From Bacteroidota bacterium (lineage in GTDB: Bacteria > Bacteroidota > Bacteroidia > AKYH767-A > OLB10), in the NCBI GenBank assembly GCA_016713445.1, contig JADJPB010000001.1, forward strand, positions 726,572 to 790,571: DNA of 64,000 nt, in the 5' to 3' direction. Positions 8,038-58,641 of the stretch are shown here, one piece after another (position 1 is the stretch's first letter; every line of letters starts with the position of its first letter). A program made the position numbers and the translations under genes. Under the pieces are notes generated by a model. That model saw only the letters and a list, made by a program, of their open reading frames with translations. It was not told the DNA's origin and did no database searches.

Positions 8038-9243
8038 TTAATCCGCCACATAATCACTCAAATATTCGAAGTGAGGCATGAGCTTTCCTTCTTTTGCAAT
8101 GGTAGCTCTTTGAATGAGTCCTTCATCGTTCCCTACCAATTGTGGAATTACGCGCTCTAGTAAATGCTTTCCAAATCCATCCGATGCATCACGTGGTAAT
8201 TCACAAGGCAAATTGTCTATAGCCATCACCGTTATAGTACTAGGAGCAAAAGCTTCGTCTATCTCTTCCGTGTTGGGATTGTAACCATAAAATTTATCTT
8301 CAATGGTTGTTGCTTTTATAGTGGATGGAATACTTCCATTCATATCGCAAGTAACATCGGCAATTACACTGATGTGAAATTTAGGATTACGCATTTGTTC
8401 AACTGTAAACAAAACCGGTGCTTTAGGATCCCAAAAAGTGCAATGGATTAATAAATCACAATAACTGGCAAATGAATTTCCCGTGGCAAAATGGCAATCA
8501 AATTTATCGGGGTGATGGTAAAACATCGATTTACTGAAATCGGATCCGTCTTTTGCTTTGTAATAATCTTCAGAATGCAGTTGGACATAAACCGGCTCTC
8601 GGAATGAATAATTTAAAAATTCAAATGCAGTAACTTTTCGAATACCCAATACACCCAAAGTTTCCATCGCTCCATTAGCTACTCTTCCTCCTCCGGTAAC
8701 TACAATTTTAAGATTCGGTAAATTGATTCGCTCCAACTCTTTAAAAACTTCCTTCTTATCATGACAAAGATGCGCGGGTTTAATATTAAAAAGGCCATAT
8801 TTCAATCCATATGCCATGATTCCATTATATGCCCCTACTAATCCAGCAAAACGACCAAAGCCGATTACCCGATTCTCATGCTGATCAACCATACATTCAT
8901 AGTCTATCATCTGGATTTTTTTCGCGATTATAGCTCTCAACAATTCACGATTATGTTTTTGCTTCTTGATGGTATGTGAAAAGAAAAGATATTTCTTTCC
9001 GGGAATTAAGAAATCCGTGGGAACTTCTTTTACGCCGATTAAAATATCGCAATCGCTTAAATCTTCCTGCAAGTTAATAGCATGCATTTTATATTCCTCA
9101 TTGGTAAAGCAGCGATGATCGCTTGGTTGCACCACTAATTGTACGCCTGGAAATTCTTTCAATAAAGCTTTACATTGTAAAGGTGTAAAAGCAACACGTT
9201 TATCGTGTGGTATCTTCTCTTCTCTGATCAATCCAATTTTCAT
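8038..9243 (-). CDS. AlaDH/PNT-family NAD-dependent oxidoreductase (alanine or saccharopine dehydrogenase-like)
   Basis: 401 aa; NAD-binding glycine-rich segment VVTGGGRVANGAMETLGVLGIRKV; intact ORF. Confidence 0.55.
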   Translation of the reverse strand: MKIGLIREEKIPHDKRVAFTPLQCKALLKEFPGVQLVVQPSDHRCFTNEEYKMHAINLQEDLSDCDILIGVKEVPTDFLIPGKKYLFFSHTIKKQKHNRELLRAIIAKKIQMIDYECMVDQHENRVIGFGRFAGLVGAYNGIMAYGLKYGLFNIKPAHLCHDKKEVFKELERINLPNLKIVVTGGGRVANGAMETLGVLGIRKVTAFEFLNYSFREPVYVQLHSEDYYKAKDGSDFSKSMFYHHPDKFDCHFATGNSFASYCDLLIHCTFWDPKAPVLFTVEQMRNPKFHISVIADVTCDMNGSIPSTIKATTIEDKFYGYNPNTEEIDEAFAPSTITVMAIDNLPCELPRDASDGFGKHLLERVIPQLVGNDEGLIQRATIAKEGKLMPHFEYLSDYVAD

Positions 9244-9314
9244 GGGGCAAAAGTAGGGTAATTAGAGACAATTAATCTATGAAAACAACATATTTTCTTA
9301 CTTAAAGCATCAAA

Positions 9315-9662
9315 TTAACCTTTGAAACAGCCGTGTTCATCGTCTTCTATTAATCTCACAAAATCGCTTAAATTTTTAATAGGATTCTTCGTTGGATAGT
9401 TATCCCAATTTAAGCTGGAACGCATCCAATATACTTTCCATGTTTTGTGTCTCCTAATAAAAGTTGTTTTTGCAAAATCAAACTGGATGAAAATTTCTGG
9501 ATTTTCAAAATTAGGGCAAATTTCAAAAATAATAACACTCAGCTTTTCAATTCTATACCCTATGTCCAATTTAGGCCGGATGTGTTCTGGCGGACGAATT
9601 TGAACCATATAGGCTTCCATTGTTTCAATAATTTCGAGCATTTCTGTTGGAGTAAATCCCAT
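9315..9662 (-). CDS. hypothetical protein (115 aa)
   Basis: Intact ORF; no motif I recognise. Confidence 0.4.
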   Translation of the reverse strand: MGFTPTEMLEIIETMEAYMVQIRPPEHIRPKLDIGYRIEKLSVIIFEICPNFENPEIFIQFDFAKTTFIRRHKTWKVYWMRSSLNWDNYPTKNPIKNLSDFVRLIEDDEHGCFKG

Positions 9663-9795
9663 TTCTTAGCAAATTTTAATTGTTAATTTAGTTCAGATTT
9701 TATTGAACATTTGATTCGATTTTAAAATCCAATTTTAAGAAAGTCAATTGTTTTTTAGATAAACAGTATCAAAGTTAACCTTCACTGTAGTTATG

Positions 9796-9990
9796 GTTAA
9801 CAAATTTAACCTTAATCAAGGCTAAAGTTAACAAAGTTAACCTTCGCTAGGGCTTCAGTTAACAAAGTTAACCTTCGCTAGGGCTTCAGTTAACAAAGTT
9901 AACCTTCGCTAGGCTTCAGTTAACAAAGTTAACCTTCGCTAGGGCTTCAGTTAACAAAGTTAACCTTCGCTAGGGCTTCAGTTAACAAAG
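9796..9990. repeat. about 6.3 tandem copies of a 31-bp unit GTTAACAAAGTTAACCTTCGCTAGGGCTTCA (two HpaI-type palindromes per unit)
   Basis: One degenerate first copy then five near-perfect copies; one copy lacks a G (ggg to gg). The last partial copy supplies the final codons (…F-V-N-stop) of the cyclase gene on the minus strand. Confidence 0.9.
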
Positions 9991-11939
9991 TACATATCAA
10001 TCTCACCTTTGTTTTTAGCATCTACTTTGCCTCGATAACTGCACTCAAATTTATTTTTCACCAAGGCATAAGTACTACCACTGATATTTACCTTTCCAGC
10101 TTCCCCACTCGACTCCATCCGTGATGCAACGTTTACGGTATCGCCCCAGATATCGTAAGCGAATTTTGGGATCCTACAATTCCTGCTACAACAGGTCCAG
10201 AATGAATACCAATTCGGATTTCAAAAGGAGTCTTTCCTTCTTTTTCACTCTTTTGCTTATGCGCCGACATATATTGTTGAATTTCCAATCCTGCCTTAAC
10301 CACATCTAAAGGATGCGAAGTATTGGAAATAGGAAGACCGCCAACACACATGTAGCTATCGCCCATCGTTTTTATCTTCTCGATTTTATGGCGAGTAATT
10401 ATATCATCAAACGCCTTGAAACAAGTATCAATTTCCGCAACCAACACTTCCGGACTCAATTTTTCACTAATTTGTGTGAAGTCTTTGAAGTCGGTGAACA
10501 TGACCGTCACACTTTCAAATTGTTTGGCCTCAGCACTTCCTTTTGACTTCAACTCTTCAGCTACTTCAAGTGGTAAAATATTTAAGAGTAAGTCATCACT
10601 TCTCTTTTTACCAGATCTGATTTTGTTACGTTGGTTTAAGAATATGATGGCAAATAATGCCACCACCGCAAATACAATCATTAAACCATCTCGAATTAAT
10701 TTCTGCTTTTGTATTTCTTTTTTTGCTAAGGCATCTTTTTTATCTTGTTCGGCTCTGGTTAAACTTTCCTTCTTATCAAAATCATATTGCATCTGCGCTT
10801 GCACCAATTTTCGGGTGTTTTCTTCACTAAATAAACTGTCGCGGGTGGAAATAAATAATTTGTAATGCGAAAAAGCATTTGCAAAGTCGCCTTTAGCACT
10901 ATCCAGCTTGACCAAAACTTCATAGTTGGATTTCAAATTATCTAAGCTTCCAATTTCTTTTGAAAGGTTTAGTGATTTAGTAAGGTAGTTTTCCGATTCC
11001 TTTAAATCTTTCTTTTTAAAATAGGCGGTACCAATATTTAAAAATGTTCCCGACATTCCTTCTTTATCTTCAATCTTAGTTTGATAGTTGACAGCTTCAA
11101 AAAGGTTTTTTAGGGCTTCATCATATTTTCCCAAGTTAATATAGATCTCTCCAATATTATTATAGGAGATGGATATTCCATCATCATTCTTCATTTCTTT
11201 CTGGAGAGCCAATGCATCTACATAGTACTGAAGTGCCTTTTCGTATTTGCCTTCATCTGCATAAACATTTCCTAAATTATTATAGGAGGAAGCAATGCCT
11301 TGTTTTTCACTAATCTCTTCAAATATTTTAAGTGAGGTTAGATAGTTTTTCTCAGCAGAAATCACATCGCCTTGCTCCACATTAATAATTCCAATATTTC
11401 CGTACAAGACAGCAATGCCATATTTATTTCCTATCTCCTCCATAGTTTTTAGAGAAGCTAAATAGTTTTCCAATGCTTTCGAATAATTTCCTTGATTCCA
11501 ATAAATGATTCCAATACTATTGTAACAGGCAGCAATGCTCGTTTTACTCCCGAGTTCTTTGTTTTGCTGCAATGATAAATTTTGGTGAGCAATTGCTGAT
11601 GGATAATCTCCTTTGTCCATAGCGATATTTCCAAAGCAATAATTTGCATTAGCAATACCTTGAGGATAATTTATTTTTCTGAAAGAGCCTTTAGTTGATG
11701 TGCGTAATCGATTGCTTTTTGAGGATCATTTCTAAGTAAGCTTTTGAAATGCTAAATAGAATTTTGGCCTTTGTTGAATCGAAAAGTGGAGTAATATCTT
11801 CGGAAGTTTTACTTTTTCGCTCATCGTGAGCTATGAGCTGTCTATTTAGTGAATCAAGCAGTCCTTTTTCTTGAGAAAATACGATGAGCGGAAAAAGAAT
11901 AAAAGCCAAGAATACGTAGATTTTTTTCATAGTGAACAA
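9978..11939 (-). CDS. signal peptide + TPR repeats + TM helix + class III adenylate/guanylate cyclase, with at least 4 frameshifts
   Basis: MFTMKKIYVFLAFILFPLIVFS signal peptide; many TPR units (…YNNLGNVYADEGKYEKALQYY…); a TM helix (LMIVFAVVALFAIIFL); a cyclase catalytic domain (FTDFKDFTQ…TMGDSYMCVGG…IRIGIHSGPVVAGIVG | IPKFAYDIWGDTVNVASRMESSGEAGKVNISGSTYALV…). Fragments are the 82-aa ORF, two short frame switches near 11640-11700, the 495-aa ORF, and a C-terminal extension beyond 10133 after a shift at about 10173. Confidence 0.8.
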
Positions 11940-11959: not shown

Positions 11960-13482
11960 TCAACTTGTTTCTAAGGCATCATCATCTTTTTTAGAAGTTG
12001 AAGTGTCCTGCTTTTCATCACCTTTTAAATAGGTAGGTAGGTTTAGTCCAGCCATATTAAATAAATCATTTAATGGAGGTACTGTCTTCATCATTCCAGC
12101 AACAAAGTTTGCAGTGGATGTATTCCCATCACCATTTTGACCATTTCCTGAATCCCAAACTGTAATTTTATCAATTTTAATATTTTTAACAGCTTCTACC
12201 TGTGTTCTTACTAACTCGGGTAGTTTTTCAATTAAGAGTAATTGAAATGCTTTTGTTGGATCACCACCTGCTGCTGCCACTACTTCTTTATAACCTTCAG
12301 CTTGTTTCGTCAATATTTCAAATAAACCTTTTGCTTCTGCTTCCATCTTTGCAAATATGGCATCTGCTTCCCCTTTTGCATTTTCACGAATAGTTTCTGC
12401 TTGAGCTTGTGCTTCAATGATCGCTCTTTGCTTGGCTATTTCAGCAGGAACAACAATATTAGCGATCTGTGTGGAGCGCTCTCTTTCTGAACGTGCAAGT
12501 TCTGCTTTTTGCTCTGCAACATAGGATTCTTCCAAAGCTTTTGCTTGTTGAACTTTTCTGCTGTGATGGCAATACGTAACGATTCCGCTTCCTTTTCACG
12601 ACGTAAAGCTTCTGAATTAGCGATAGCAATTTTTGCTTCGTTTTCTCCCTTTATTGCTATAGCATTGGCTTCGGAAGTTTTTACACGTGTATCTCTATCT
12701 GCTTCTGCTTTTCCGATGGTTTCATCTTTTACAGCTGTTGCAATGCTAATTTCTTTATCTTTTTGAGTGATGGCAATTTTTACATCACGGTCTCTATGTG
12801 TTTCTGCAATCTGAGTATCTTTTTCTCTATCGGCGATTGCCTTCCCAGTTTCTCCAATCTTTTCTTGTTCCGCAACACTGATCTTAGCTTCGTTTATTGC
12901 TTTTGCAGCAGCCTCCTTTCCTAAAGCTTCAATATAACCTGATTCATCTTTAATATCCGTTACGTTAACGTTGATAAGTTTTAATCCGATCTTTTTGAGT
13001 TCGCTATCGACGTTCTTGGAAATATTGTCCAAAAATTTGTCTCTATCAGAATTGATTTCCTCGATGGTCATCGTGGCAATAACCAAACGTAATTGACCGA
13101 AAAGAATATCTTTTGCTAGTTCTTGAATTTGCTCCGAGGTTAATCCTAACAAACGCTCTGCAGCTGTATTCATACTATCAGCTTCAGTTGATATTGCAAT
13201 GGTAAATCGACAGGGAACATCAACACGAATATTTTGTCGACTTAACGCATTTGTTAAATTAGCTTCTATAGATAAAGGCTTCAAATCCAGAAATGCAAAA
13301 TCCTGGATCACCGGCCAAATAAAAGCGCCTCCTCCATGTACACACTTCGCGGAAGTACCACCTGTTCTACCATAAATGACTAAAATTTTATCGGATGGAC
13401 ATCTTTTATACCTTGAAACCAAGGCAGAAATGGTTACGAACAGAACAATTGCTGCAACAATAATGAGAATAATAGGAGACAT
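11960..13482 (-). CDS. flotillin-like SPFH/band-7 protein (YqiK/FloA family), frameshifted near 12480
   Basis: N-terminal TM segment then an SPFH domain (…VIYGRTGGTSAKCVHGGGAFIWPVIQDFAFLDLKPLSIEANL…), followed by a long A/E/K-rich coiled-coil tail that continues into the 191-aa ORF. Confidence 0.8.
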
Positions 13483-28948: not shown

Positions 28949-28972
28949 ATTTTTTAACTTAATTCACAAAAA

Positions 28973-29008
28973 AAACCCAGCTAATTAGCTGGGTTTTTTT
29001 TGTGAATT
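28973..29008. terminator. bidirectional rho-independent terminator
   Basis: aaaaaaaacccagctaattagctgggttttttttgtg. Confidence 0.7.
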
Positions 29009-48244: not shown

Positions 48245-50157
48245 CTCACACTATTCGCGAGTTCAAAATACTTCGCTGCCATCGCTTCATTGCCTTTATT
48301 GCGCCAGGTTACTCTAAAAGTAATAAGCTTGCGTAAGATTTGGATTAATTTGTACCGCTCGCTCGAGGTTAGTGATGGCCATATCATAGCCCGCCTACTC
48401 CGTAACACGATCCGATATTCATATAAGCATCAGCATAATCAGGTTTGTATTTTACGGCTTGTTGATATCGTTTTAAGGCTTCGTTGTAGTTTTGCATATC
48501 GAAATATACTGAACCAGAATTGTTGAGCACAACAGGATCATAAGGATTTAATTTTATGGCTTCGTCGTAGTATTTCAATGCTTCTGGATAATTTTTAACT
48601 CGGTAACTGGCTATTCCAAGTTGGGTCCATGCATCGGTGAAATATGGGTATAATTCAGTCGATTGTTGTAGATGGGAAACACCATCGTTGAATGCGGCAT
48701 CACGTTGATTTTCGGGAAGTGTTTCGAGGTAGTCGGGTTTTACTTTGTAAAGACCTACGTAATAATGTACGCGTGCCGAATTCGGCGCTGAGCTGAGACC
48801 GCTATTGTACACAACGTCTCGTTGCTCTTCCAAACTGGATTTCGTGTTATGGTGAGCCCTGAGAAGAGCAGTACAACAATTCCTGTGAATGACGCCGCCG
48901 GCACAGCAATGGTTTTTGATTCTACTAAATTTTTATCGAGAAATTTTAATATTAATGATGCGAAAAATAAAATAATTCCGAAAGAAGGCACATACATCAA
49001 ACGCTCTCCGTAATGTGTACCAATTCGCATGAAGATGTTAGAGGAAACAGAAACGGTTATGAAAAAGAAGAACAAGGCAAAACTAATCAGAGTCCCTTTC
49101 TTAAAATCCTTGATTGCCCATCCGAGGAGAGTTAGCAAAAGAACAGCCGATACCATAAATTTCCAATCACTTATTTTTGCTGAGAAACTTCAGGAAACGA
49201 TAAGTCAAAACTCAGGTTGTTGGGAACAACTAATTTGTAAAGATACAATCCCAACATAGCCACGGCACCGGTTATTTGAGTCAAGGTGTCTTTAGCGTAC
49301 ATCAATGCATTGTCAGCAACGGAGGGTGGTGCCGCCGTGAACATCTCGGAACTATTTAAGCCGTTGTGACGGATGAAGAGGAGAAGGATGGTGGGGATGA
49401 GCATCCATTGCGTGCCAACGAGCGAGGAACGGATTGTAGAAGTGTCTGAAGAATGAAAACGAAAATAAACCAATAACGGAAATATAGGTAAAAAGGTTAT
49501 GCTACTTTCTTTGCATAGGTAAGCGGCGAAGAATAAAATCATCGCTAGAATAATATTCATCGCTTTCCCTTGATCCTTGTAGGTTAAATATTGATTGAGG
49601 CTCAGTAGACAAAAGAGGAACGCTAATATTTCATCTAAGCTTTTAATGTTGGCCACAACTTCGGTGTGGATGGGATGGACGGCGAATATTAATGCGGTGA
49701 GTAACGCTAACTTTTGTTGATTCGGAAACCATTTGCTTAATAATCGGAAGATGAAAAAGCAAGTGAATGCAAAAAGCAAGACGTTGAGAAGATGTCCGGG
49801 TGTGGCGTTGTTTGGAAACCAATCCCAGAAAATAGCAAAGATTGCCTTAGGCAAAGGACGATACAACTCATCGGCAAGGAGAATGTAACCATAACGGTAA
49901 CTTGTGGAAAAGATTTCACCTAAGGCTGCTATTCCCTTTTGCGTACTGGTGTTTTCTAGGATTGCAGCATAATCATCTAATACAAATCCGAAGTCCAATG
50001 TGTTCGCATAAACTAAAAAACCAAGGATTGCCGGCAACCATGCCCACCATTTTGGATAATCTACTTTAGGGACAGATGATAGTACACCACTCTCTTTGGC
50101 TTTCGCCGTAGCAGCAAATTTTTCTTTTTTATTTAGTTTCTTCGCCGACATGGTCAC
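48245..50157 (-). CDS. TMTC-like protein: polytopic N-terminal membrane domain (DUF1736/PMT-like) plus C-terminal TPR repeats; split into at least 4 fragments by frameshifts
   Basis: 328-aa membrane ORF (…WWAWLPAILGFLVYANTLDFGFVLDDYAAILENTSTQKGIAALGEIFSTSYRYGY…); a further membrane segment in 48755-49156; TPR units in 48384-48833 continuing in shifted frames to about 48245 (…AMAAKYFELANSVSK*). Confidence 0.6.
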
Positions 50158-51636: not shown

Positions 51637-52822
51637 TTGCAAAAAACATCAAGTATGCGCTTACAGGTAGTCGTGGGAAAAGAACTTATTCATCAATTTC
51701 ATCAAATTCCCTATTCCATCTATAACAACGATCCACATTGGGTGCCTCATATAATTCAAGACATCGAGAAAGTTTTTGATCCAGCTAAGAACAAGCTTTT
51801 TAAGGAAGGAGCTACGGCCATTCGTTGGATACTTCTCAATGATACAGGTGAAAAAATTGGACGAATCGCAGCATTCATCAATCCGAAAGATGTAGACACC
51901 ACGAAATACAAGACGGGCGGACTCGGATTTTTTGAATGTATCAACGATCCGTTGGCGGCACATTTCCTATTTGACGCAGGCAAAGAATGGCTCGCTAAAC
52001 AAGGGATGGAAGCCATGGACGGCCCCATCAACTTCGGCGACCGCAGTCAATTTTGGGGTTGTCAGGTTACCAATTGGAACGAGCCCGGCATCTATCCCAT
52101 GAACTACAATCCGCCTTACTACCAAGAACTTTTCCTTAGCTATGGCTTTGGCGTTTATTTCAACCAGCATATTTACTGGCGTAGTTTAGAAATTCCAGCG
52201 CAAGCCATTTTTCACCGCAAATACAACAATTTAAAGAGCGATCCAAAATTCAAGGTTTGCAATATTGAAAGTATATCGGTGGAGCAAGCGGCTGAAAACT
52301 TCCAAATCGTTTATAATGCAGCTTGGGGCGGACATTCCCACTTTAAGGAGATGAGTTCGTCGGCAGCGCAGAAAGTATTCAGGGCCATTAAACCCGTATT
52401 AGATCCACGGGCTATTATCTTCGCTTATTACGATGATGCCCCCATTGGGGGTATTCTTATGTATACCCGAGTTAAACCAGATCTTCAAACATGTAAATGG
52501 GAACTTAAATGCCATAGGAAAAATAAAATTCCTATATCACAAGCTACGTCGCACTAGTACTCGACTTGTAGGGGCGGTATTTGGAGTGATTCGTGAATGG
52601 CATGGGAAAGGCGTAGAAGCCGCTTTAGTCGTTGAGGGCGAGATCAGTATCAAATCACGTAGAGTGTACAAAGACTTTGTCATTACCTGGATTGGCGACT
52701 TTAACCCCAAAATGATCAAAGTAGCCGAAAACCTTGATACTCAACTCTGGAGAACATTACAAACCTATCGTTACACCTTCGACCGAAGTATTCCATTTGA
52801 AAGGTGTCCAGTTGTTGAATAA
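51637..52822 (+). CDS. hypothetical protein (possibly acyl-CoA N-acyltransferase-like), frameshifted at about 52450-52550
   Basis: 306-aa ORF plus an overlapping 129-aa ORF collinear in another frame; I cannot assign a family with confidence. Confidence 0.35.
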
Positions 52823-52950
52823 CTACTCAAAATATTCATTAACAATTTTTTAAGATGTGTTTAAAAAAAACCTCTTCTTTGCTTGTCTAAATGAAAACAT
52901 AAAGACTATTTTTGCACCCCGTTTAAGACAATACTAGTTGAAGACGGAAC

Positions 52951-53023
52951 GATTCCGTAGCTCAGTTGGTAGAGCAATACACTTTTAATGTATGGGCCCT
53001 GGGTTCGAGTCCCAGCGGAATCA
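52951..53023 (+). tRNA. tRNA-Lys (TTT)
   Basis: GATTCCGTAGCTCAGTTGGTAGAGCAATACACTTTTAATGTATGGGCCCTGGGTTCGAGTCCCAGCGGAATCA: 7-bp acceptor stem, anticodon loop CTTTTAA, TTCGAGT T-loop. Confidence 0.9.
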
Positions 53024-53039
53024 CTAGTAAATGCAAAGG

Positions 53040-53062
53040 AAGGCCCTCTACGAGGGCCTTTT
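53040..53062 (+). terminator. hairpin with T run immediately 3' of tRNA-Lys
   Basis: aggccctctacgagggcctttt. Confidence 0.55.
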
Positions 53063-53072
53063 GATTTTAGGA

Positions 53073-54735
53073 AATCTGCCCAAGCTTGCTTGGAAGCAGA
53101 TTATGAAAATCAAAAAATGCGGAGCATTCGCTTTGCTTTTTCCACTCGGAGCTAAATGGGTCCGCCAAACAGCTTTAGCTGGTTGGCACTCCCAGTTTTT
53201 CTGCCCAAGCTTGCTTGGAAGCAGATGACAAAAAACAAAATTCGCAGCTTTAGCTGCGTTGCTTTCTATTTTCAGAATGGAGACTAATGGGTCCGTCTCG
53301 TCGTGTTGCTTGCAACATGACGAGACATTCCCAGTTTTCTCTGCCCAAGCTTGCTTGGAAGCAGATGACAAAAAACAAAATTCGCAGCTTTAGCTGCGTT
53401 GCTTTCTATTTTCAGAATGGAGACTAATGGGTCCGTCTCGTCGTGTTGCTTGCAACATGACGAGACATTCCCAGTTTTTTTCTGCCCAAGCTTGCTTGGA
53501 AGCAGATGACAAAAAACAAAATTCGCAGCTTTAGCTGCGTTGCTTTCTATTTTCAGAATGGAGACTAATGGGTCCAACGAATAAAATCATATTGCTTGCA
53601 ATGTGATTTTATTCGTCAATCCCAGCGAGATCATTAATAATTGCAAAGCGAAGGCCCTCTCCAAGGTCGCGTTTTTGTTTTAGGGCATCTGCCCAAGCTT
53701 GCTTTCCCCACTCTCCCCTCGACAGGCTCATGGAGCATATTCTTTTAATTTAAATAATAACACTCTGTTCACTCATTCTCATTCTCATTCTCTCTCCTAT
53801 ATGGGTCCGTCTCGTCGTGTTGCTTGCAACATGACGAGACATTCCCAGTTTTTTTCTGCCCAAGCTTGCTTGGAAGCAGATGACAAAAAACAAAATTCGC
53901 AGCTTTAGCTGCGTTGCTTTCTATTTTCAGAATGGAGACTAATGGGTCCAACCGATAAAATCATATTGCTTGCAATGTGATTTTATTCGTCAATCCCAGC
54001 GAGATCACTAATAATTGCAAAGCGAATGCCCTCTCCAAGGTCGCGTTTTTGTTTTAAGGCATTTGCGCAAGCTTGCTTGCCCTACTCTCCCCTCGACAGG
54101 CTCAGGGAGCATACTCTTTTAATTTAAATAATAACACTCTGTTCACTCATTCTCATTCTCATTCTCTCTCTCCTATATGGGTCCGTCTCGTCGTGTAGCT
54201 TGCAACATGACGAGACATTCCCAGTTTTTTTCTGCCCAAGCTTGCTTGGAAGCAGATGACAAAAAACAAAATTCGCAGCTTTAGCTGCGTTGCTTTCTAT
54301 TTTCAGAATGGAGACTAATGGGTCCAACCGATAAAATCGTATTGCTTGCAATGTGATTTTATTCGTCAATCCAAGCGAGATCACTAATAATTGCAAAGCG
54401 AATGCTCTCTCTCAAGGTCGCGTTTTTGTTTTAGGATTGCATTTGCGCAAGCTTGCTTTCCCTACTCTCCCTCGACAGGCTCTGGGAGCATTCTCTTTTA
54501 ATTTAAATAATAACACTCTGTTCACTCATTCTCATTCTCTCTCTCCTTCTCATTCTCATTCTCTCTCTCCTATATGGGTCCGTCTCGGCGTGTTGCTGAC
54601 AACATGCAAAGATATTCCCGGATTTTTTCTGCCCAAGCTTGCTTCTCCTACTCTCCCCTCTACAGGCTCAGGGAGCATTCTCTTTTAATTTAAATAATAA
54701 CACTCTGTTCACTCATTCTCATTCTCCCTCTCCTT
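53073..54735. repeat. composite non-coding tandem array: three units of about 130-140 bp, then three units of about 375 bp, then a degenerate tail; built from hairpin modules P, Q, H1, H2 and S
   Basis: P = CTGCCCAAGCTTGCTTGGAAGCAG (imperfect palindrome), 10 occurrences; Q = 70-bp block with a GCAGCTttaGCTGC hairpin; H1 = GTCTCGTCGTGTTGCTTGCAACATGACGAGAC + ATTCCCAG + T7; H2 = CGAATAAAATCATATTGCTTGCAATGTGATTTTATTCG followed by an approximately 80%-identical copy of the tRNA-Lys 3' end and its 3' flank; S = 120-bp block with a variable (CATTCT)n(CT)n microsatellite. Confidence 0.9.
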
Positions 54736-54949
54736 TTTGCAGTACACACTCTCTAAAATTACTAAGATTCATTTTAACTTCAGGGTTCTGCTAGACTGAT
54801 GGACAAATATCTAACAGTCTAAATTGCTGTTTTAGCGAATCATTTTAATTGAGAATGATTATTTTCACGGAGTGAAATATGAGAAATAGTAATGAGTTTG
54901 GAGGTTAAAAACTCTAACTTTTATACTTCGCTCTTAAAGAATTAATACC

Positions 54950-55630
54950 ATGTCAGAAAACAACACCAAATACGAAAAGCAATTAGGCATCCTCAATTTA
55001 TTGGTAATCATCTTAACCTTTTATGTGTTGGGTGCCATAGTGGTAGATACCATCTACCCCCTTGATAAGGAAACTTCTACTTTATTGCATGATATTGATA
55101 TTGCCATTTGTATTTTCTTCTTGGGCGAATTTTCGGTTCGCTTTTATAGGGCAGAGAATAAATGGAAGTTTATGAAATGGGGGTGGATCGATTTATTATC
55201 CAGCATTCCTATGATTGAGCCCTTAAGAGCAGGTCGAATGCTTCGCTTGTTCCGATTACTTCGCATTGTGAGGGCTTTTCGGTCGACCCATCATTTGGTA
55301 CACCATGTTTTCAAAAATAAAATAAAGGGCACACTCACATCGGCAGTTATCTTTGCAGTGCTCATTATTATTTTTTCCTCCATTGCCATCTTACAGGTAG
55401 AGCATCATCCAAATAGCAATATTCTCACTGCTGAAGATGCTTTATGGTGGGCTTATGTTACAATTACCACTGTAGGTTATGGTGATTTGTATCCGGTAAC
55501 TACAGAAGGTCGGATCATTGCAGCCCTCTTAATGACTACAGGAGTAGGTTTGTTTGGGACATTTACTGCTTATGTTTCTTCTTTGTATGTGATAAGCCAG
55601 AAAAAAGATGAAGAAAACGGCGATAGATAA
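54950..55630 (+). CDS. voltage-gated potassium channel (compact 6-TM Kv-like)
   Basis: S4 voltage sensor RAGRMLRLFRLLRIVRAFR; selectivity filter TTVGYGD; 226 aa. Confidence 0.8.
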   Translation: MSENNTKYEKQLGILNLLVIILTFYVLGAIVVDTIYPLDKETSTLLHDIDIAICIFFLGEFSVRFYRAENKWKFMKWGWIDLLSSIPMIEPLRAGRMLRLFRLLRIVRAFRSTHHLVHHVFKNKIKGTLTSAVIFAVLIIIFSSIAILQVEHHPNSNILTAEDALWWAYVTITTVGYGDLYPVTTEGRIIAALLMTTGVGLFGTFTAYVSSLYVISQKKDEENGDR

Positions 55631-55695
55631 CATGACTAAACACTGAATTCAATATTTATTCTATTAAAAAAACTTTATTTTTTAAATACTTAACA

Positions 55696-57057
55696 TTAAG
55701 AATATAACAAACTACCCTTCCAATTTTGCTCAGCACATAAATTCCCAGATTTTGTTTGTTGAATTTTCGGGATAGAAAACGTAAATGTAGATCCTTCATT
55801 CAAGTTAGAAGAAACTTTAATTTTCCCACCGTAATTGTCCATCATCTTTTTTGCAACGGCTAAACCTGCTCCAGTGGATTCAAATGCATCTCGAGGGTTG
55901 ATAGTTTGAAAAATCACAAAGATTTTATCGAAATACTTTTCTTCAATTCCAATTCCATTGTCACTTACACTAAAATGACAATACTCCTCCTCCTCTTTAC
56001 AAGAAACTTTAATTTCACATTGTGATTTATCATTAAACTTGATGGCATTGTCTATAAGAATTTCCATTACCGATTTCCAAACGAACTCGTCCGTCTTCAC
56101 CAATGGCAATTTACTTTCTATTTTAATTTTGTAATTCCGATTGCTCGGCAACAATGATAATACTTGCTCCATTAAAACCTCTGTGTCTACTTCCTTTATT
56201 TGATTATCTCTTCGGTCTACTTTCGAATAGTTCAACAAAGCATCCAATAGCAATTCCATTCGCTGTACTCTGTTTTTAATCGTCAATAAATTTCTTCTTG
56301 TTTCCTCATTCAGATTATCTTCTAAGTCCATCTCCAAAAAATCAGCTAACGTACCAATAGCCCTCAAGGGTGCTTTGAGATCGTGAGAAGCTACGGAGGC
56401 AAATTTATCTAACTCCTTATTCGACTTTTCCAAGTTTTTAGTGTACCGTTGAAGTAGAAGGTTCGATTCCTCCAATAATTTATTTTTCTCCTCTAATTCA
56501 CGTTTTGATTTTTCCAAGCGTTGGATAATGATATTTTTACCGCTCTGTAAATAATTTCCTTGACTCGCTATGAGATAAAAAGAAAAAAGCGCATTCACAA
56601 TAAAATCCTGATTGATTAAATCCACATCGTCCTTAAACATGGCGAAGGAAGTCCAGTTTGTAAATTCAGAAATTAAATAAAAATAGATCGCATTTAACGC
56701 AAATAAAACAGTGAAAAATCGACCTCCATTTTTGCCTAACATTAAATAGGCATATAAAATAATGACACCATGATACAACAATCCTCCAGTACGAATTCCG
56801 CCACAGGAATAAGCCACGAAATGCAATAAGGCGAAAGAGGAAATTAATAGTATTCGATAAGAAATTAGTAATCGATCAATAGTGGCTATGAAAAAATAAT
56901 TGGTTAACATTAATGCTCCAAGCGATAAGATGACCCAAGGTAAGATTCCTGCTTGCGGAATTGTTGCCAACATTTTAGATGCCACTGCCAAACAAAACCA
57001 AGGCACCTGAAATAGAAAAGATCCGAAAGAGTACAAATCGTTGTTTATCGACAACAT
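55696..57057 (-). CDS. sensor histidine kinase (polytopic N-terminal sensor domain, HisKA, HATPase_c)
   Basis: H-box ASVASHDLKAPLRAIGTLADFLE; N, G1 and G2 boxes (…DNGIGIEEKYFDKIF…GTGAGLAVAKK…); coiled-coil linker. Confidence 0.8.
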   Translation of the reverse strand: MLSINNDLYSFGSFLFQVPWFCLAVASKMLATIPQAGILPWVILSLGALMLTNYFFIATIDRLLISYRILLISSFALLHFVAYSCGGIRTGGLLYHGVIILYAYLMLGKNGGRFFTVLFALNAIYFYLISEFTNWTSFAMFKDDVDLINQDFIVNALFSFYLIASQGNYLQSGKNIIIQRLEKSKRELEEKNKLLEESNLLLQRYTKNLEKSNKELDKFASVASHDLKAPLRAIGTLADFLEMDLEDNLNEETRRNLLTIKNRVQRMELLLDALLNYSKVDRRDNQIKEVDTEVLMEQVLSLLPSNRNYKIKIESKLPLVKTDEFVWKSVMEILIDNAIKFNDKSQCEIKVSCKEEEEYCHFSVSDNGIGIEEKYFDKIFVIFQTINPRDAFESTGAGLAVAKKMMDNYGGKIKVSSNLNEGSTFTFSIPKIQQTKSGNLCAEQNWKGSLLYS

Positions 57058-57522
57058 CTTCTTCGGGAATTGATGCGACTATATGTTCTCTAGAAAGAGC
57101 AGACAATATTGGTTTCATAGTGGTCTTAGTAAAAATAGTATACGAAGTAAAATACAAAGGGTTGCAAAGTCACTATTAAAGAGATAGAAATTCATTGAAA
57201 AAAAGCCTCACTAAGCATGGCTGTTCAGCATTAACAATATTTTCAAATGAAGACTCAAGCCCAATTTATAGATTATTAGATTGTAAGTAAATCCGATAAA
57301 ATTTGATTTCTCCTATTTATCAGTGTTCATTTTGAAATTTGAATGTATAGTTTAATTCATAGTCTGATAAGAACCCATAATAAACCTGTCCCGCAGCATT
57401 GCGCATTGTAGTTAGGCTGATTTGAGGCTATAACAACATTATGCAAAAATATTAAGGGGAAAAACTTATAGGATTTGGGCGCAAAATATTGCGTCCCTAC
57501 ATGAATTCAACAATTTACTAAA

Positions 57523-57644
57523 GCTCGCGTGCCATAAAATTGGATGATATCCAATTTTATGGCACGCGAGCTCTTTCTAGGGGGTGAATTTTTGTAGAGA
57601 CGCCATTAATGGCGTCTCTACAATTTGGTCGCGAGGCTTCGCGA
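57523..57644. repeat. cluster of three strong palindromes/hairpins in a 0.7-kb intergenic region
   Basis: 57523-57571 GCTCGCGTGCCATAAAATTGGAT-gat-ATCCAATTTTATGGCACGCGAGC (perfect 23-bp arms); 57594-57621 GTAGAGACGCCATTAATGGCGTCTCTAC; 57629-57644 TCGCGAGGCTTCGCGA (identical to 7680-7695). Confidence 0.7.
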
Positions 57645-57790
57645 TTTCCGATTAAAATATCCGTGAACTGTTATTATACCTTTAGCTTAGCCTGACGTCC
57701 ATGGGCAGCAGTGCGGGGTCATGACCCATCATGGAAATCCGTGTTCAATTCCATTGTTTAATCTATGAATCATTATATTTGACAAGCAAA

Positions 57791-58641
57791 ATGATTCAAA
57801 TGATTCCAATTCATGACTTAGAAGAGCACGAGAAAAAGGAAATCAAGATGATCGAGTTGGACAAGGCGCTCAAGAACGACGCTACCGAGCCACACCGACA
57901 TCATTATTTCGAGTGCTTTGTGTTTTTGAAAGGAGGAGGAACTCATATTGTCGATTTTGTAGAGTTTCCTATCGAATCGAATTCCATTCATATTGTTACG
58001 CCCGGACAAGTACATAAGGTAAAAAGGAAAATTAAATTCGACAGGCTTTGTATTTCTTTTGATATGTTCCACTTCGATCAGAAAAACAAATTGAACAATT
58101 ATTATTCGATCATACTTGCTTTGATGTAAACGAGTTTTCGCCGAGCTATCATTTTGAAGATGCTTTTACTGTTGAATTGAAGAACATAATCTCGCAAGCC
58201 TGGAATGAATTTAATTCACAAAGTCTATTGAAAAATCAAATTGTGTTGAATCAATTAACCTTACTTCTACTCTACTGTTTGCGACTTCGTGGTGAGAATA
58301 TATCAACGGAAGGTCAAGGAAAGGCTACAGGGCTTTATTCGGCGTTTAGGAGGCTTATGCATAACGAGTATAAATCACTTAAAAAGGTGAAAGATTATGC
58401 GGCTAGTTTGAATGTTACAGAGAAGTACTTAAATGATGAAGTGATGCAAAAATGTGGCGAAACGGTGAGTGCGGTCATTAGTCGACATCTTATTTTGGAA
58501 GCCAAGCGTTTATTGAATACGGGTGTCTCGGCGAAGGAAGTTAGTTATGAACTCAATTTTACGGATCCAGCTCATTTTAGTAAGTTTTTCAAGACACAAA
58601 CAGGTTTTTCACCCAGCGAATTCAAAAATATACATGAATAA
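57791..58641 (+). CDS. AraC family transcriptional regulator (cupin-like N-terminal domain plus HTH_18), frameshifted at about 58100-58180
   Basis: N-terminus …HRHHYFECFVFLKGGGTHIVDFVEFPIESNSIHIVTPGQVH…; C-terminus …VKDYAASLNVTEKYLNDEVMQKCGETVSAVISRHLILEAKRLLNTGVSAKEVSYELNFTDPAHFSKFFKTQTGFSPSEF…. Confidence 0.75.

Follow-up and report, generated by a model that had tools for sequence, protein, structure and literature searches.

A gene-less tandem array behind tRNA-Lys in a Bacteroidota genome, probably a local satellite of the tRNA 3' end and its native flank

Islander-type tDNA islands (Williams 2002 sublocations; PMC4383910) present an intact tRNA gene followed by copies of its 3' end in direct orientation, and the same arrangement is found at the locus described here, where a 1.7-kb array without genes (53025-54735) lies 3' of tRNA-Lys(UUU). 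Furthermore, this same tRNA-Lys holds integrase islands in relatives. The array differs from such islands in having neither integrase nor cargo between the copies, in its intervals of 374 bp instead of kilobases, and in copies that are duplicates of one unit and include approximately 70 nt of native flank. Nor is the tRNA followed by element DNA, the flank being homologous to that of a relative (L082) up to position 53160. CIMEs and their accretion are likewise established concepts (PMC5704250, PMC3146451). They resemble the array in being gene-poor or integrase-less units between att-like copies of a tRNA or tmRNA 3' end, arranged in tandem at a hotspot, and the array units are themselves without genes and bounded by tRNA 3' copies or by repeats of a hairpin, here called TL. 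However, CIMEs are kilobase-sized and carry recognizable ICE/IME sequence, whereas the array units are 140-374 bp of the locus's own sequence. Comparison of the array with the element in relative L081, with phages and with plasmids revealed no similarity and no detectable residual ICE/IME sequence.

Other described repeats share single traits with the array. Enterobacterial BIMEs/REP sequences occur in hundreds of dispersed copies with alternating orientation; they too are composite extragenic arrays with strong palindromic modules and conserved linkers, situated 3' of transcription units, but the modules of the array are found at one locus within the sequence searched and in a single orientation. 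Integron attC sites are characterized by R''/R' core motifs (RYYYAAC/GTTRRRY), cassette ORFs and IntI. Arrays of attC and CALINs are similar in their run of hairpins, whose base is conserved and whose palindromic interior varies, and recombination at hairpins is conceivable, but the hairpin bases here are TGGGTCC and ATTCCCAG, and as there are no core motifs, cassette ORFs or IntI, this assignment was rejected. Tandem intrinsic terminators behind stable-RNA operons also place GC-rich hairpins and T-runs directly after a tRNA gene, but the at least 19 hairpins found over the 1.7 kb, decayed tRNA fragments among them, far exceed what termination needs. In a comparison with tRNA pseudogenes, 3' ends and variable-loop/T-stem motifs were clear in the units. 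A MITE was rejected since H1 ... TAATGGGTCC, the ends of the unit, do not form inverted repeats, those found all being internal hairpins; a CRISPR array was rejected since the inter-repeat sequences are themselves repeated, with 96-100% identity; and an iteron or origin was rejected on anatomy.

The window, i.e. the whole 64-kb stretch of DNA that was analyzed, has the following features at this locus, where P is a palindrome, h and TL (variants H0, H1 and H2) are hairpins, and A and S are further modules:

52907-52914, plus strand: -7 promoter motif TATTTTTG of the tRNA, with TTG 21 nt upstream
52951-53024, plus strand: intact tRNA-Lys(UUU), identified by ARAGORN and Rfam (tRNA-Lys(ttt), 75 bits)
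53040-53070, plus strand: terminator T1, AAGGCCCTC-TAC-GAGGGCCTT followed by a T-tract
53056-53115, no strand assigned: extended palindrome around the first P (53075-53100) with T-tract/A-tract pairing, covarying arms and an apex, CAAGCTTGCTTG, that relatives conserve
53101-53199, plus strand: A0, ancestral "unit-1", with hairpin h (53119-53131), spacer, TL(H0) (53157-53195) and T-run
53200-53339, plus strand: first 140-bp unit, with P (53200-53225), A-rich stretch, hairpin h and TL(H1) (53288-53334) with T-run
53340-53480, plus strand: second 140-bp unit, with P (53340-53365) and TL(H1) (53428-53474) with T7 run
53427-53800, plus strand: first 374-bp unit, with TL(H1), T-run, P (53481-53506), A, TL(H2) (53569-53625), tRNA 3' copy and flank, half-P and S1
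53620-53687, plus strand: first displaced tRNA 3' end copy, TCCCAGCGAGATCA, then 3' flank and decayed terminator
53688-53704, plus strand: first half-P, TCTGCCCAAGCTTGCTT, broken just beyond the palindrome centre
53705-53800, plus strand: first S block, with a (CTCATT)n(CT)n microsatellite (53772-53792)
53801-54176, plus strand: second 374-bp unit, with TL(H1) (53802-53848), P (53855-53880), TL(H2) (53943-53999), tRNA 3' copy (53994-54061), half-P (54062-54079) and S2 (54080-54176)
54177-54573, plus strand: third 374-bp unit (397 bp), with TL(H1) (one mismatch; 54178-54224), P (54231-54256), TL(H2) (54319-54375), tRNA 3' copy (54370-54441; TCCAAGCGAGATCA), half-P (54442-54458) and S3, whose microsatellite is expanded (54525-54571)
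54574-54735, plus strand: terminal degenerate partial unit, with decayed TL(H1) (54575-54621), T-run, half-P (54628-54644) and S4 (54645-54735); end of the array
54950-55630, plus strand: K+ channel gene (Ion_trans, Ion_trans_2), outside the array

By employing TRF, we found a 140-bp period (2.8 copies, 98% matches, 53190-53575), a 374-bp period (3.0 copies, 96%, 53427-54539) and (CTCATT)n microsatellites of varying length. The array is made up of 2.8 copies of the 140-bp unit, three of the 374-bp unit and a degenerate edge copy, numbers that rest on one long-read MAG assembly in which homopolymer lengths may be wrong, given its origin and several frameshifted genes nearby. Palindrome P has six exact occurrences against zero expected and H1 has four, module counts well above chance. 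All modules are co-oriented, with TTGCTT found 22 times on the plus strand and 0 times on the minus strand, and TGGGTCC nine and 0 times, respectively, the latter motif having a single occurrence in the remaining 62 kb. ORFs within the array are not credible and matched no Pfam domain. The sequence-only reading, i.e. an earlier interpretation of the bare DNA, had described a non-coding tandem array with a length-variable microsatellite between tRNA-Lys(TTT) and a K+ channel gene. All of this holds, as supported by the Pfam search for the ORFs, the two TRF periods for the tandem structure, the (CTCATT)n repeats for the microsatellite, ARAGORN and Rfam for the tRNA, and Ion_trans for the channel. 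The channel gene is possibly old island cargo; tRNA-Lys lies upstream in only one of 80 K+ channel loci.

The tRNA 3' end recurs in three decayed copies, each with about 70 nt of flank, which lie in direct orientation downstream of the intact tRNA and start in its T-stem region. Their spacing of 374 and 376 bp agrees with the three tandem copies at roughly 375 bp proposed earlier. They read TCCCAGCGAGATCA at 53620 and 53994 and TCCAAGCGAGATCA at 54370, and match TCCCAGCGGAATCA of the tRNA in 12, 12 and 11 out of 14 positions, respectively. Each continues into duplicated 3' flank with a decayed terminator, up to and including the first half of P, and over approximately 85 nt the copies with their flank are 75-82% identical to the real one. 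Copies of the last ~17 nt with some 80% identity had been noticed earlier, but they read CGAGATCA and not CG(G/A)AATCA. Terminator and P had also been described as duplicated, but the terminator copies have lost their 3' arm and of P only half was copied. The acceptor 3' strand of the tRNA itself is CGGAATC in the window versus CGGGATC in all relatives. An element-supplied origin of the current 3' end (CGGAATCA) was rejected, its sole other occurrence being in an unrelated phage-encoded tRNA. Part of the S block (approximately 53726-53752) bears a weak resemblance to two arms of tRNA-Lys, the D-arm and the anticodon arm (p 0.005-0.05 in shuffles), and neither relaxed ARAGORN nor a tRNA-Lys nhmmer profile detected a tRNA in it. 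The A units were rejected as decayed tRNAs, as the part upstream of ATGGGTCC has no significant similarity (p 0.4-0.8), and a cloverleaf-like fold for them, which depends on A/T-run pairing, was dropped.

Relatives show where the modules come from. Their order is tRNA, terminator, palindrome P and unit-1 (hairpin h, TL, T-run), and the native flank of the window (52801-53160, with terminator, P and the start of unit-1) is 81% identical to that of L082, an un-invaded relative, with A0 homologous as far as the end of this segment. Downstream of tRNA-Lys, L082, L091, L094 and L107 all have the P apex (CAAGCTTGCTTG) and a TL-like hairpin, as does a Flavobacterium MAG (L068) downstream of a tRNA-Lys/Lys/Leu operon; among 166 loci, the apex motif is restricted to those of tRNA-Lys. 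The P arms have compensatory changes in 11 out of 21 pairs across six lineages. TL is a two-tier hairpin in which tRNA variable-loop/T-stem sequence (ATGGGTCC ... TCCCAG) surrounds a long inner hairpin; it folds in this way in all lineages, its outer stem matching the T-stem of the adjacent tRNA. H1 had been described as followed by a T7 run, which is present, but ATTCCCAG intervenes between the two and pairs with the upstream TGGG, extending the H1 stem. The tRNA-His gene in the same window is followed by a plain terminator alone, so P and TL hairpins do not belong to tRNA flanks in general. One neighboring protein is 80% identical in the nearest other genome. Roughly one quarter of the surveyed loci have smaller gene-less tandem units that start with tRNA-Lys 3' copies. 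Tandem units in relatives measure 97 bp in 2.7 copies (L091), 124 bp in 2.3 (L082), 133 bp in two (L111), 116 bp in 2.9 (L132) and 164 bp in two (L108). Unit number is one, two and two in three close genomes, a picture of independent amplification in relatives. No further copies of P, H1 or the whole array were found in the other 62 kb of the window, and searches of 185,579 species genomes, JGI metagenomes and IMG/VR gave no P.

Within the array, divergence is unevenly distributed. The five P-A segments are 100% identical, and the unit alignment has one variable column in columns 1-152 versus about 20 in columns 153-320. At the left edge, A0 has 67-69% identity to the inner units, the third 374-bp unit has 90-92% identity to the first and second, and the last unit is degenerate. 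This homogeneous centre with diverged edges shows what looks like a signature of concerted evolution. The 100% identity of the 140-bp units, within hosts diverged by 4-10%, is equally compatible with recent insertion or with selection instead of gene conversion.

With a probability of roughly 0.58, we read the array as a locus-specific, non-coding mosaic satellite, derived from the 3' part of tRNA-Lys and its native 3' flank and amplified locally. A segment that begins in the T-arm region, comprises the acceptor 3' strand, flank and terminator and reaches as far as the centre of P would have been duplicated downstream, and so would the P-h-TL units in this lineage. The resulting direct repeats (TL, P and tRNA 3' copies) would favor unequal crossing-over or replication slippage, by which the 140-bp and 374-bp units may have been amplified, the inner copies staying homogeneous while the edges decayed. 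The first duplication presumably started at the T-arm/3' end, through a tRNA-Lys-specific tyrosine integrase active at this hotspot or through template switching at hairpins. Out of three earlier candidates, a satellite originating from the tRNA locus has the strongest support, because all modules but part of S are native to the locus in relatives and because of the homogeneous-centre, diverged-edge pattern. The covarying P arms, the two-tier TL, the restriction of the modules to one strand and one locus, the independent amplification and the integration hotspot in relatives, and the negative searches for internal promoters, Rfam families, Pfam domains and an integrase also speak for it.

We consider it unlikely that the array instead serves an RNA-level function under selection, i.e. 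as a stack of terminator, processing or stabilizer hairpins or as a structured read-through RNA transcribed from the tRNA promoter. The conservation and covariation of P and TL from Flavobacterium to the lineage of the window speak for a function, as does the plain terminator after tRNA-His. Further points in its favor are the apex G-CTTG-C, found in P, H1 and H2 on the plus strand only, the stem imperfections, which are G-T and not A-C pairs (in H1, H2, h of A0 and the TL of L068), and the 13 terminator-like sites versus 2.5 expected, with T-runs after h and TL. Plus-strand-specific G(CUUG)C loops, G-T mismatches and T-runs, together with a P apex invariant across families, hint at a constraint on the RNA level. 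However, a double-stranded DNA site predicts palindrome covariation equally well, common descent of the hairpins can explain the shared apex, and the folding energy of the plus strand is not consistently better than that of the minus strand. Moreover, TATTTTTG is the sole Bacteroidetes-type promoter on the plus strand within 52700-55000, and neither TAnnTTTG nor another promoter of this type occurs inside the intact units, so any RNA must pass the intact T1. The terminator copies in the units are decayed, the L091 units lack T-runs, and the Rfam 15 covariance models gave no family for the array, tRNA alone being significant in the window and two relatives. The suggestion of an array of small RNA genes fails on the same two points, i.e. 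no promoter in intact units and no Rfam match.

In relatives, tRNA-Lys is an integration hotspot. A tyrosine integrase is found directly 3' of it in L081, L083 and L084, repeat-bounded islands with exact 25-nt repeats occupy it in L108 and L094, and IMG/VR contains proviruses at the same tRNA. Homology in the invaded relatives ends at the tRNA end, the integrase junctions replacing the native flank. The L108 island is integrase-less and 1.36 kb long, has an exact 25-nt repeat and is followed by the 164-bp units, each of which starts with the last 8 nt of the tRNA, while in L082 a direct repeat of about 75 nt containing TL flanks a 1.3-kb HicAB-like cassette plus an inverted 27-nt tRNA-Lys fragment. 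These integrases, proviruses, islands and repeats would fit a reading of the 140-bp unit (H1-CCCAG-T-run-P-A-ATGGGTCC) as a miniature non-autonomous integrative element, a mini-CIME close to a bare attachment site, stacked by tandem accretion through tRNA-Lys tyrosine integrases acting in trans with crossover at TL. We find this quite unlikely. It would fit with the ATGGGTCC repeat inside TL, which bounds each copy, and with unit copies that are 99-100% identical next to pseudo-3'-end and S segments with differences of 4-10%. Nevertheless, the unit has no copy in the window beyond the array, P was not found in any of the genome, metagenome and virus collections named above, there is no resemblance to the L081 element, phages or plasmids, and tblastn with the integrase of a relative gave no match in the whole 64 kb. 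A 140-bp circle is mechanically implausible, which we count against this explanation as well. Furthermore, the duplicates carry native flank, which true integrase junctions replace, and the centre-to-edge divergence gradient fits unequal exchange. Serial integration of a miniature element, as suggested by the sequence-only reading, is thus borne out as far as the hotspot and the gene-less mini-units in relatives are concerned, but in the window it is disfavored, since the three copies arose recently by tandem duplication of one 374-bp unit, and not in three separate events, and since they carry native flank, unlike the integrase junctions in relatives, and since integrase and dispersed copies are absent. 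The absence of integrase and cargo genes had itself been observed correctly, as judged by tblastn over the 64 kb and by the Pfam search of the array ORFs.

More speculatively, and in our judgment improbably, the TL hairpins, with their T-stem base and variable palindromic interior, and P in the same system, could be recombination sites of a miniature cassette system conserved across Flavobacteriia. Tyrosine recombinases specific for tRNA-Lys would then act at T-arm-like hairpins, where gene-less 140-bp units, and now and then a small gene cassette like the HicAB-like pair of L082, would be inserted, excised and stacked in a way that would resemble attC-based cassette capture.

An assembly artefact behind the copy number and structure is very improbable, for although the contig comes from an NCBI MAG of apparently long-read metagenome origin, at least three nearby genes are frameshift-split compared to relatives and the short-read contigs of a related species break in the equivalent region, the units differ in substitutions, indels and microsatellite lengths along an ordered gradient, which is not expected from artefactual expansion of one unit, and analogous arrays exist in independent assemblies of other species.

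To return to the satellite derived from the tRNA locus, its modules are of local origin, its structure is tandem, its copies diverge in a gradient and its pattern recurs in relatives. The array is probably without autonomous activity, and its role is at most a passive one, with terminator-like hairpins stacked after a tRNA that is strongly expressed, and with a run of pseudo-attachment sites. It is an unusually large case of scarring and local duplication at a tRNA gene often targeted by mobile elements, none of the evidence marks it as a new mobile element or RNA gene, and the earlier statement that it matches no known element class was overstated. If the satellite reading is true, the array records the ageing of a tRNA integration hotspot, where leftover tRNA 3' fragments, terminators and palindromes would become substrates for repeated local duplication. 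This would yield a satellite that evolves fast, disrupts assemblies from short reads and can pass for a mobile element or an RNA gene. The same pattern at this locus in roughly one in four of the Bacteroidota relatives examined makes it usable as a natural system for tandem-repeat dynamics beside tRNA genes. Lastly, P and the two-tier TL, both absent from Rfam, may merit description as a terminator-like motif of tRNA-Lys operons.

The tRNA-Lys(UUU) gene has a sole Bacteroidetes-type promoter at 52907 (TTG, 21 nt, TATTTTTG). The stretch from 53025 to about 54735 contains no ORF with a family match and is a tandem mosaic. With the tRNA itself, the order is:

52951-53024, + strand, tRNA-Lys(UUU) (ARAGORN, Rfam), then its terminator T1 and the 26-bp palindrome P
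53101-53199, the first unit, A0, with TL(H0)
two 140-bp units, P-A-TL(H1)
three 374-bp units, P-A-TL(H2)-tRNA 3' copy-flank-decayed terminator-half P-S-TL(H1)
a degenerate end unit

The array claimed by the sequence-only reading is real, with TRF reporting a 140-bp period (53190-53575, 2.8 copies, 98%), a 374-bp period (53427-54539, 3.0 copies, 96%) and (CTCATT)n microsatellites that vary in length. There are six exact copies of P, where none is expected, and four additional half copies; the inner hairpin H1 has four copies and a further, decayed one. Three tandem copies of the tRNA 3' end (TCCCAGCGAGATCA or TCCAAGCGAGATCA) are likewise present at 53620, 53994 and 54370, matching the tRNA at 11-12 of 14 positions. 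Each is followed by the tRNA 3' flank, with 75-82% identity to the real copy over ~85 nt; of the terminator and palindrome said to close each unit, the former is decayed and only the first half of the latter is there.

The recurring key module, TL, is a two-tier stem-loop found nine times in the window, (A)TGGG-TCC-inner hairpin (H0, H1 or H2)-A(T/C)T-CCCA-G, usually with a T-run on its 3' side. The T-run previously reported to follow H1 does exist, but 8 nt intervene, which supply the 3' side of TL's outer stem. TL is flanked by ATGGGTCC and TCCCAG, which the tRNA-Lys of relatives has in its variable loop and T-stem (ATGGGTCC-TGGGTTCGAG-TCCCAG). The S block in the 3' part of the 374-bp units holds GCTCA(G)GGAGCATACTCTTTTAATTTA and resembles the tRNA-Lys D and anticodon arms (p 0.005-0.05 versus shuffles); since neither relaxed ARAGORN nor a tRNA-Lys profile detected a tRNA in this block, the likeness is only a hint that whole-gene copies may once have been involved.

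The units themselves speak against serial integration at the tRNA att site, one of the candidates proposed earlier: the three tRNA 3' copies are not three integrations but parts of 374-bp units with 90-96.5% mutual identity. Identity among the five P-A segments is 100%, and the unit alignment has one variable column in columns 1-152 as opposed to ~20 in columns 153-320. Most diverged are the copies at both edges, since A0 shares only 67-69% identity with the inner units and the unit at the other end is degenerate. Such a pattern is typical of a tandem array under concerted evolution, by unequal exchange or conversion. A0, at the array edge, is the ancestral copy, orthologous to unit-1 of the syntenic related locus L082. 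The duplicated tRNA ends carry native flank, whereas the integrase junctions of relatives do not. Because the copies share native flank and diverge from centre to edge, with the ancestral A0 at the edge, a satellite derived from the tRNA locus, also among the earlier candidates, is favoured. The first duplication would have started from the T-arm/3' end region and the P centre, through an integrase at the tRNA-Lys hotspot or through hairpin-mediated template switching; TL, P and the tRNA 3' copies would then have served as sites of unequal crossing-over or slippage that amplified the units.

The protein of the gene upstream of the tRNA has a 100% identical match in an NCBI MAG (locus tag IPK10_) and its next best relative at 80% identity. 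A species whose neighbouring gene is 72% identical shares the upstream synteny and tRNA-Lys, with two kinds of alleles. In three contigs a 393-aa tyrosine integrase (Arm-DNA-bind_5, SAM_5, Phage_integrase) lies directly 3' of the tRNA and homology to the window ends at the tRNA end; tRNA-Lys is thus a genuine integration hotspot. The uninvaded allele (two contigs) stays homologous (81%) up to window position 53160, past the terminator and P and into unit-1, and then bears its own array, 124 bp x 2.3, of different TL and P-like modules; by this homology, the first part of the window array is native and vertically inherited. IMG/VR contains proviruses at tRNA-Lys in which an element-supplied terminator and repeats of the arm type precede the integrase gene. 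Short-read contigs of the related species (L084, L085, L086 and L087) stop within ~330 bp 3' of tRNA-Lys, which fits repeats or strain heterogeneity breaking assemblies at this site.

An active 140-bp mini-element would agree with the perfect identity of the 140-bp units within diverged hosts, their ATGGGTCC boundaries and the TL-module repeat around a HicAB-like cassette in L082, but neither the mobility nor the cognate integrase envisaged earlier was found: the modules have no copy in the rest of the 64-kb window, P has none in genome, metagenome and viral contig collections, and no integrase lies within the 64 kb. The array also lacks sequence derived from the relative's integrase element, phages or plasmids, and shows the centre-to-edge gradient of divergence. 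In L082 (11905-13345), a ~75-nt direct repeat of the TL-containing module stands on both sides of a 1.3-kb segment with a HicA-like/HicB-like pair and an inverted 27-nt tRNA-Lys 3' fragment (12038-12063).

A function at the RNA level, or the array of small RNA genes considered earlier, has to contend with the absence of internal promoters, an intact T1 upstream of the array, decayed terminator copies inside the units and an Rfam scan without match. It would nevertheless explain the G-CTTG-C apex common to P, H1 and H2 on the + strand only, G(CUUG)C being a stable RNA tetraloop, as well as the G-T pairs that make up the stem imperfections, the enrichment of terminator-like sites (13 versus 2.5 expected) and the conservation of P and TL. 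A miniature cassette system that recombines at TL hairpins is improbable. The units differ from one another in an ordered way and have independent parallels in relatives, which makes an assembly artefact unlikely.

Among 36 distinct loci sharing the gene-tRNA-Lys arrangement, six had tandem repeats (period of 40 bp or more) immediately 3' of the tRNA, and in five the tRNA 3' end was copied in direct orientation less than 2.5 kb away. Three close genomes have 1, 2 and 2 units, and the window array is the largest case seen.

Repeats 3' of tRNA-Lys in related Bacteroidota loci
L091: three 97-bp h-TL units (h, a small hairpin)
L111: two 133-bp units, each opening with CCCCAGCGGGGTCAC and terminator; a decayed third core comes next
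L132: 116-bp units x 2.9
L108: 1.36-kb integrase-less island with an exact 25-nt repeat; 3' of it, two 164-bp units opening with the tRNA's last 8 nt; a third core carries a native-flank copy with compensatory terminator changes
L119: decayed second tRNA-like copy with a hairpin in place of the T-loop

In L068, a Flavobacterium MAG, tRNA-Lys, tRNA-Lys and tRNA-Leu are followed by a palindrome with 26-bp arms and the apex TCAAGCTTGCTTGA as in the window, and also by a TL-like hairpin with T-run. Over six lineages the P arms covary (11/21 pairs compensatory) around an invariant apex. Such a palindrome, with apex CAAGCTTGCTTG, and a two-tier hairpin (GGG-3 nt-GNC...GNC-AAT-CCC) with T-run, which closes the tRNA-Lys(-Leu) operon, are found within 9105-9230 in L068 and just 3' of tRNA-Lys in L082, L091, L094 and L107. 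Neither has an Rfam match, and both are conserved, undescribed motifs. In L082, L091 and L107, the h hairpin and the interiors of TL repeatedly contain GCGAAGC / CGAAG triloop mini-hairpins; as single-stranded DNA, d(GCGAAGC) forms a hairpin of unusual stability.

Upstream of the tRNA, the gene at 51637-52822 is broken into two ORFs that overlap (306 aa and 129 aa). Its homologue in relatives is a single 388-aa protein without Pfam match, a GNAT-superfamily acetyltransferase according to some sources, and the split is probably a frameshift, from an indel error in the long reads or because the gene is a pseudogene. Two further genes look frameshifted versus relatives (within 48384-50157 and 57731-58641), which suggests residual indel errors of about one per few kb; a TPR protein gene (630 aa in relatives) lies in three ORFs, and an AraC-type regulator gene (282-285 aa in L082) is divided between a Cupin_2 ORF and an HTH_18 ORF. 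The intergenic region before the latter (57488-57625) holds two long near-perfect palindromes unrelated in sequence to the array modules, one with ~26-bp arms centred near 57547 and one at 57592-57623. A perfect palindrome with 24-bp arms at 28961-29008 (AATTCACAAAAAAAACCCAGCTAA / TTAGCTGGGTTTTTTTTGTGAATT) is probably a bidirectional terminator. A K+ channel gene lies just 3' of the tRNA-Lys operon in the window (within 54950-57057) and in L068 (within 8799-10648), and not at the other 79 channel loci; at the corresponding position L082 has neither channel nor histidine kinase, a pair that an old island at the hotspot may have brought in.

Integron, CRISPR array and described RNA families were rejected as identities for the array. 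Like BIMEs it is a palindrome mosaic, but its modules are not dispersed within the 64 kb and do not alternate in orientation. The sequence-only reading could match it to no known element class; it does resemble tDNA islands, with which it shares displaced tRNA fragments (PMC4383910), CIME accretion (PMC5704250) and the tandem ssrA islands of Dehalococcoides (PMC3146451), although it lacks their defining integrase, foreign flank or residual element DNA. We class the array as tRNA-hotspot scarring turned satellite.
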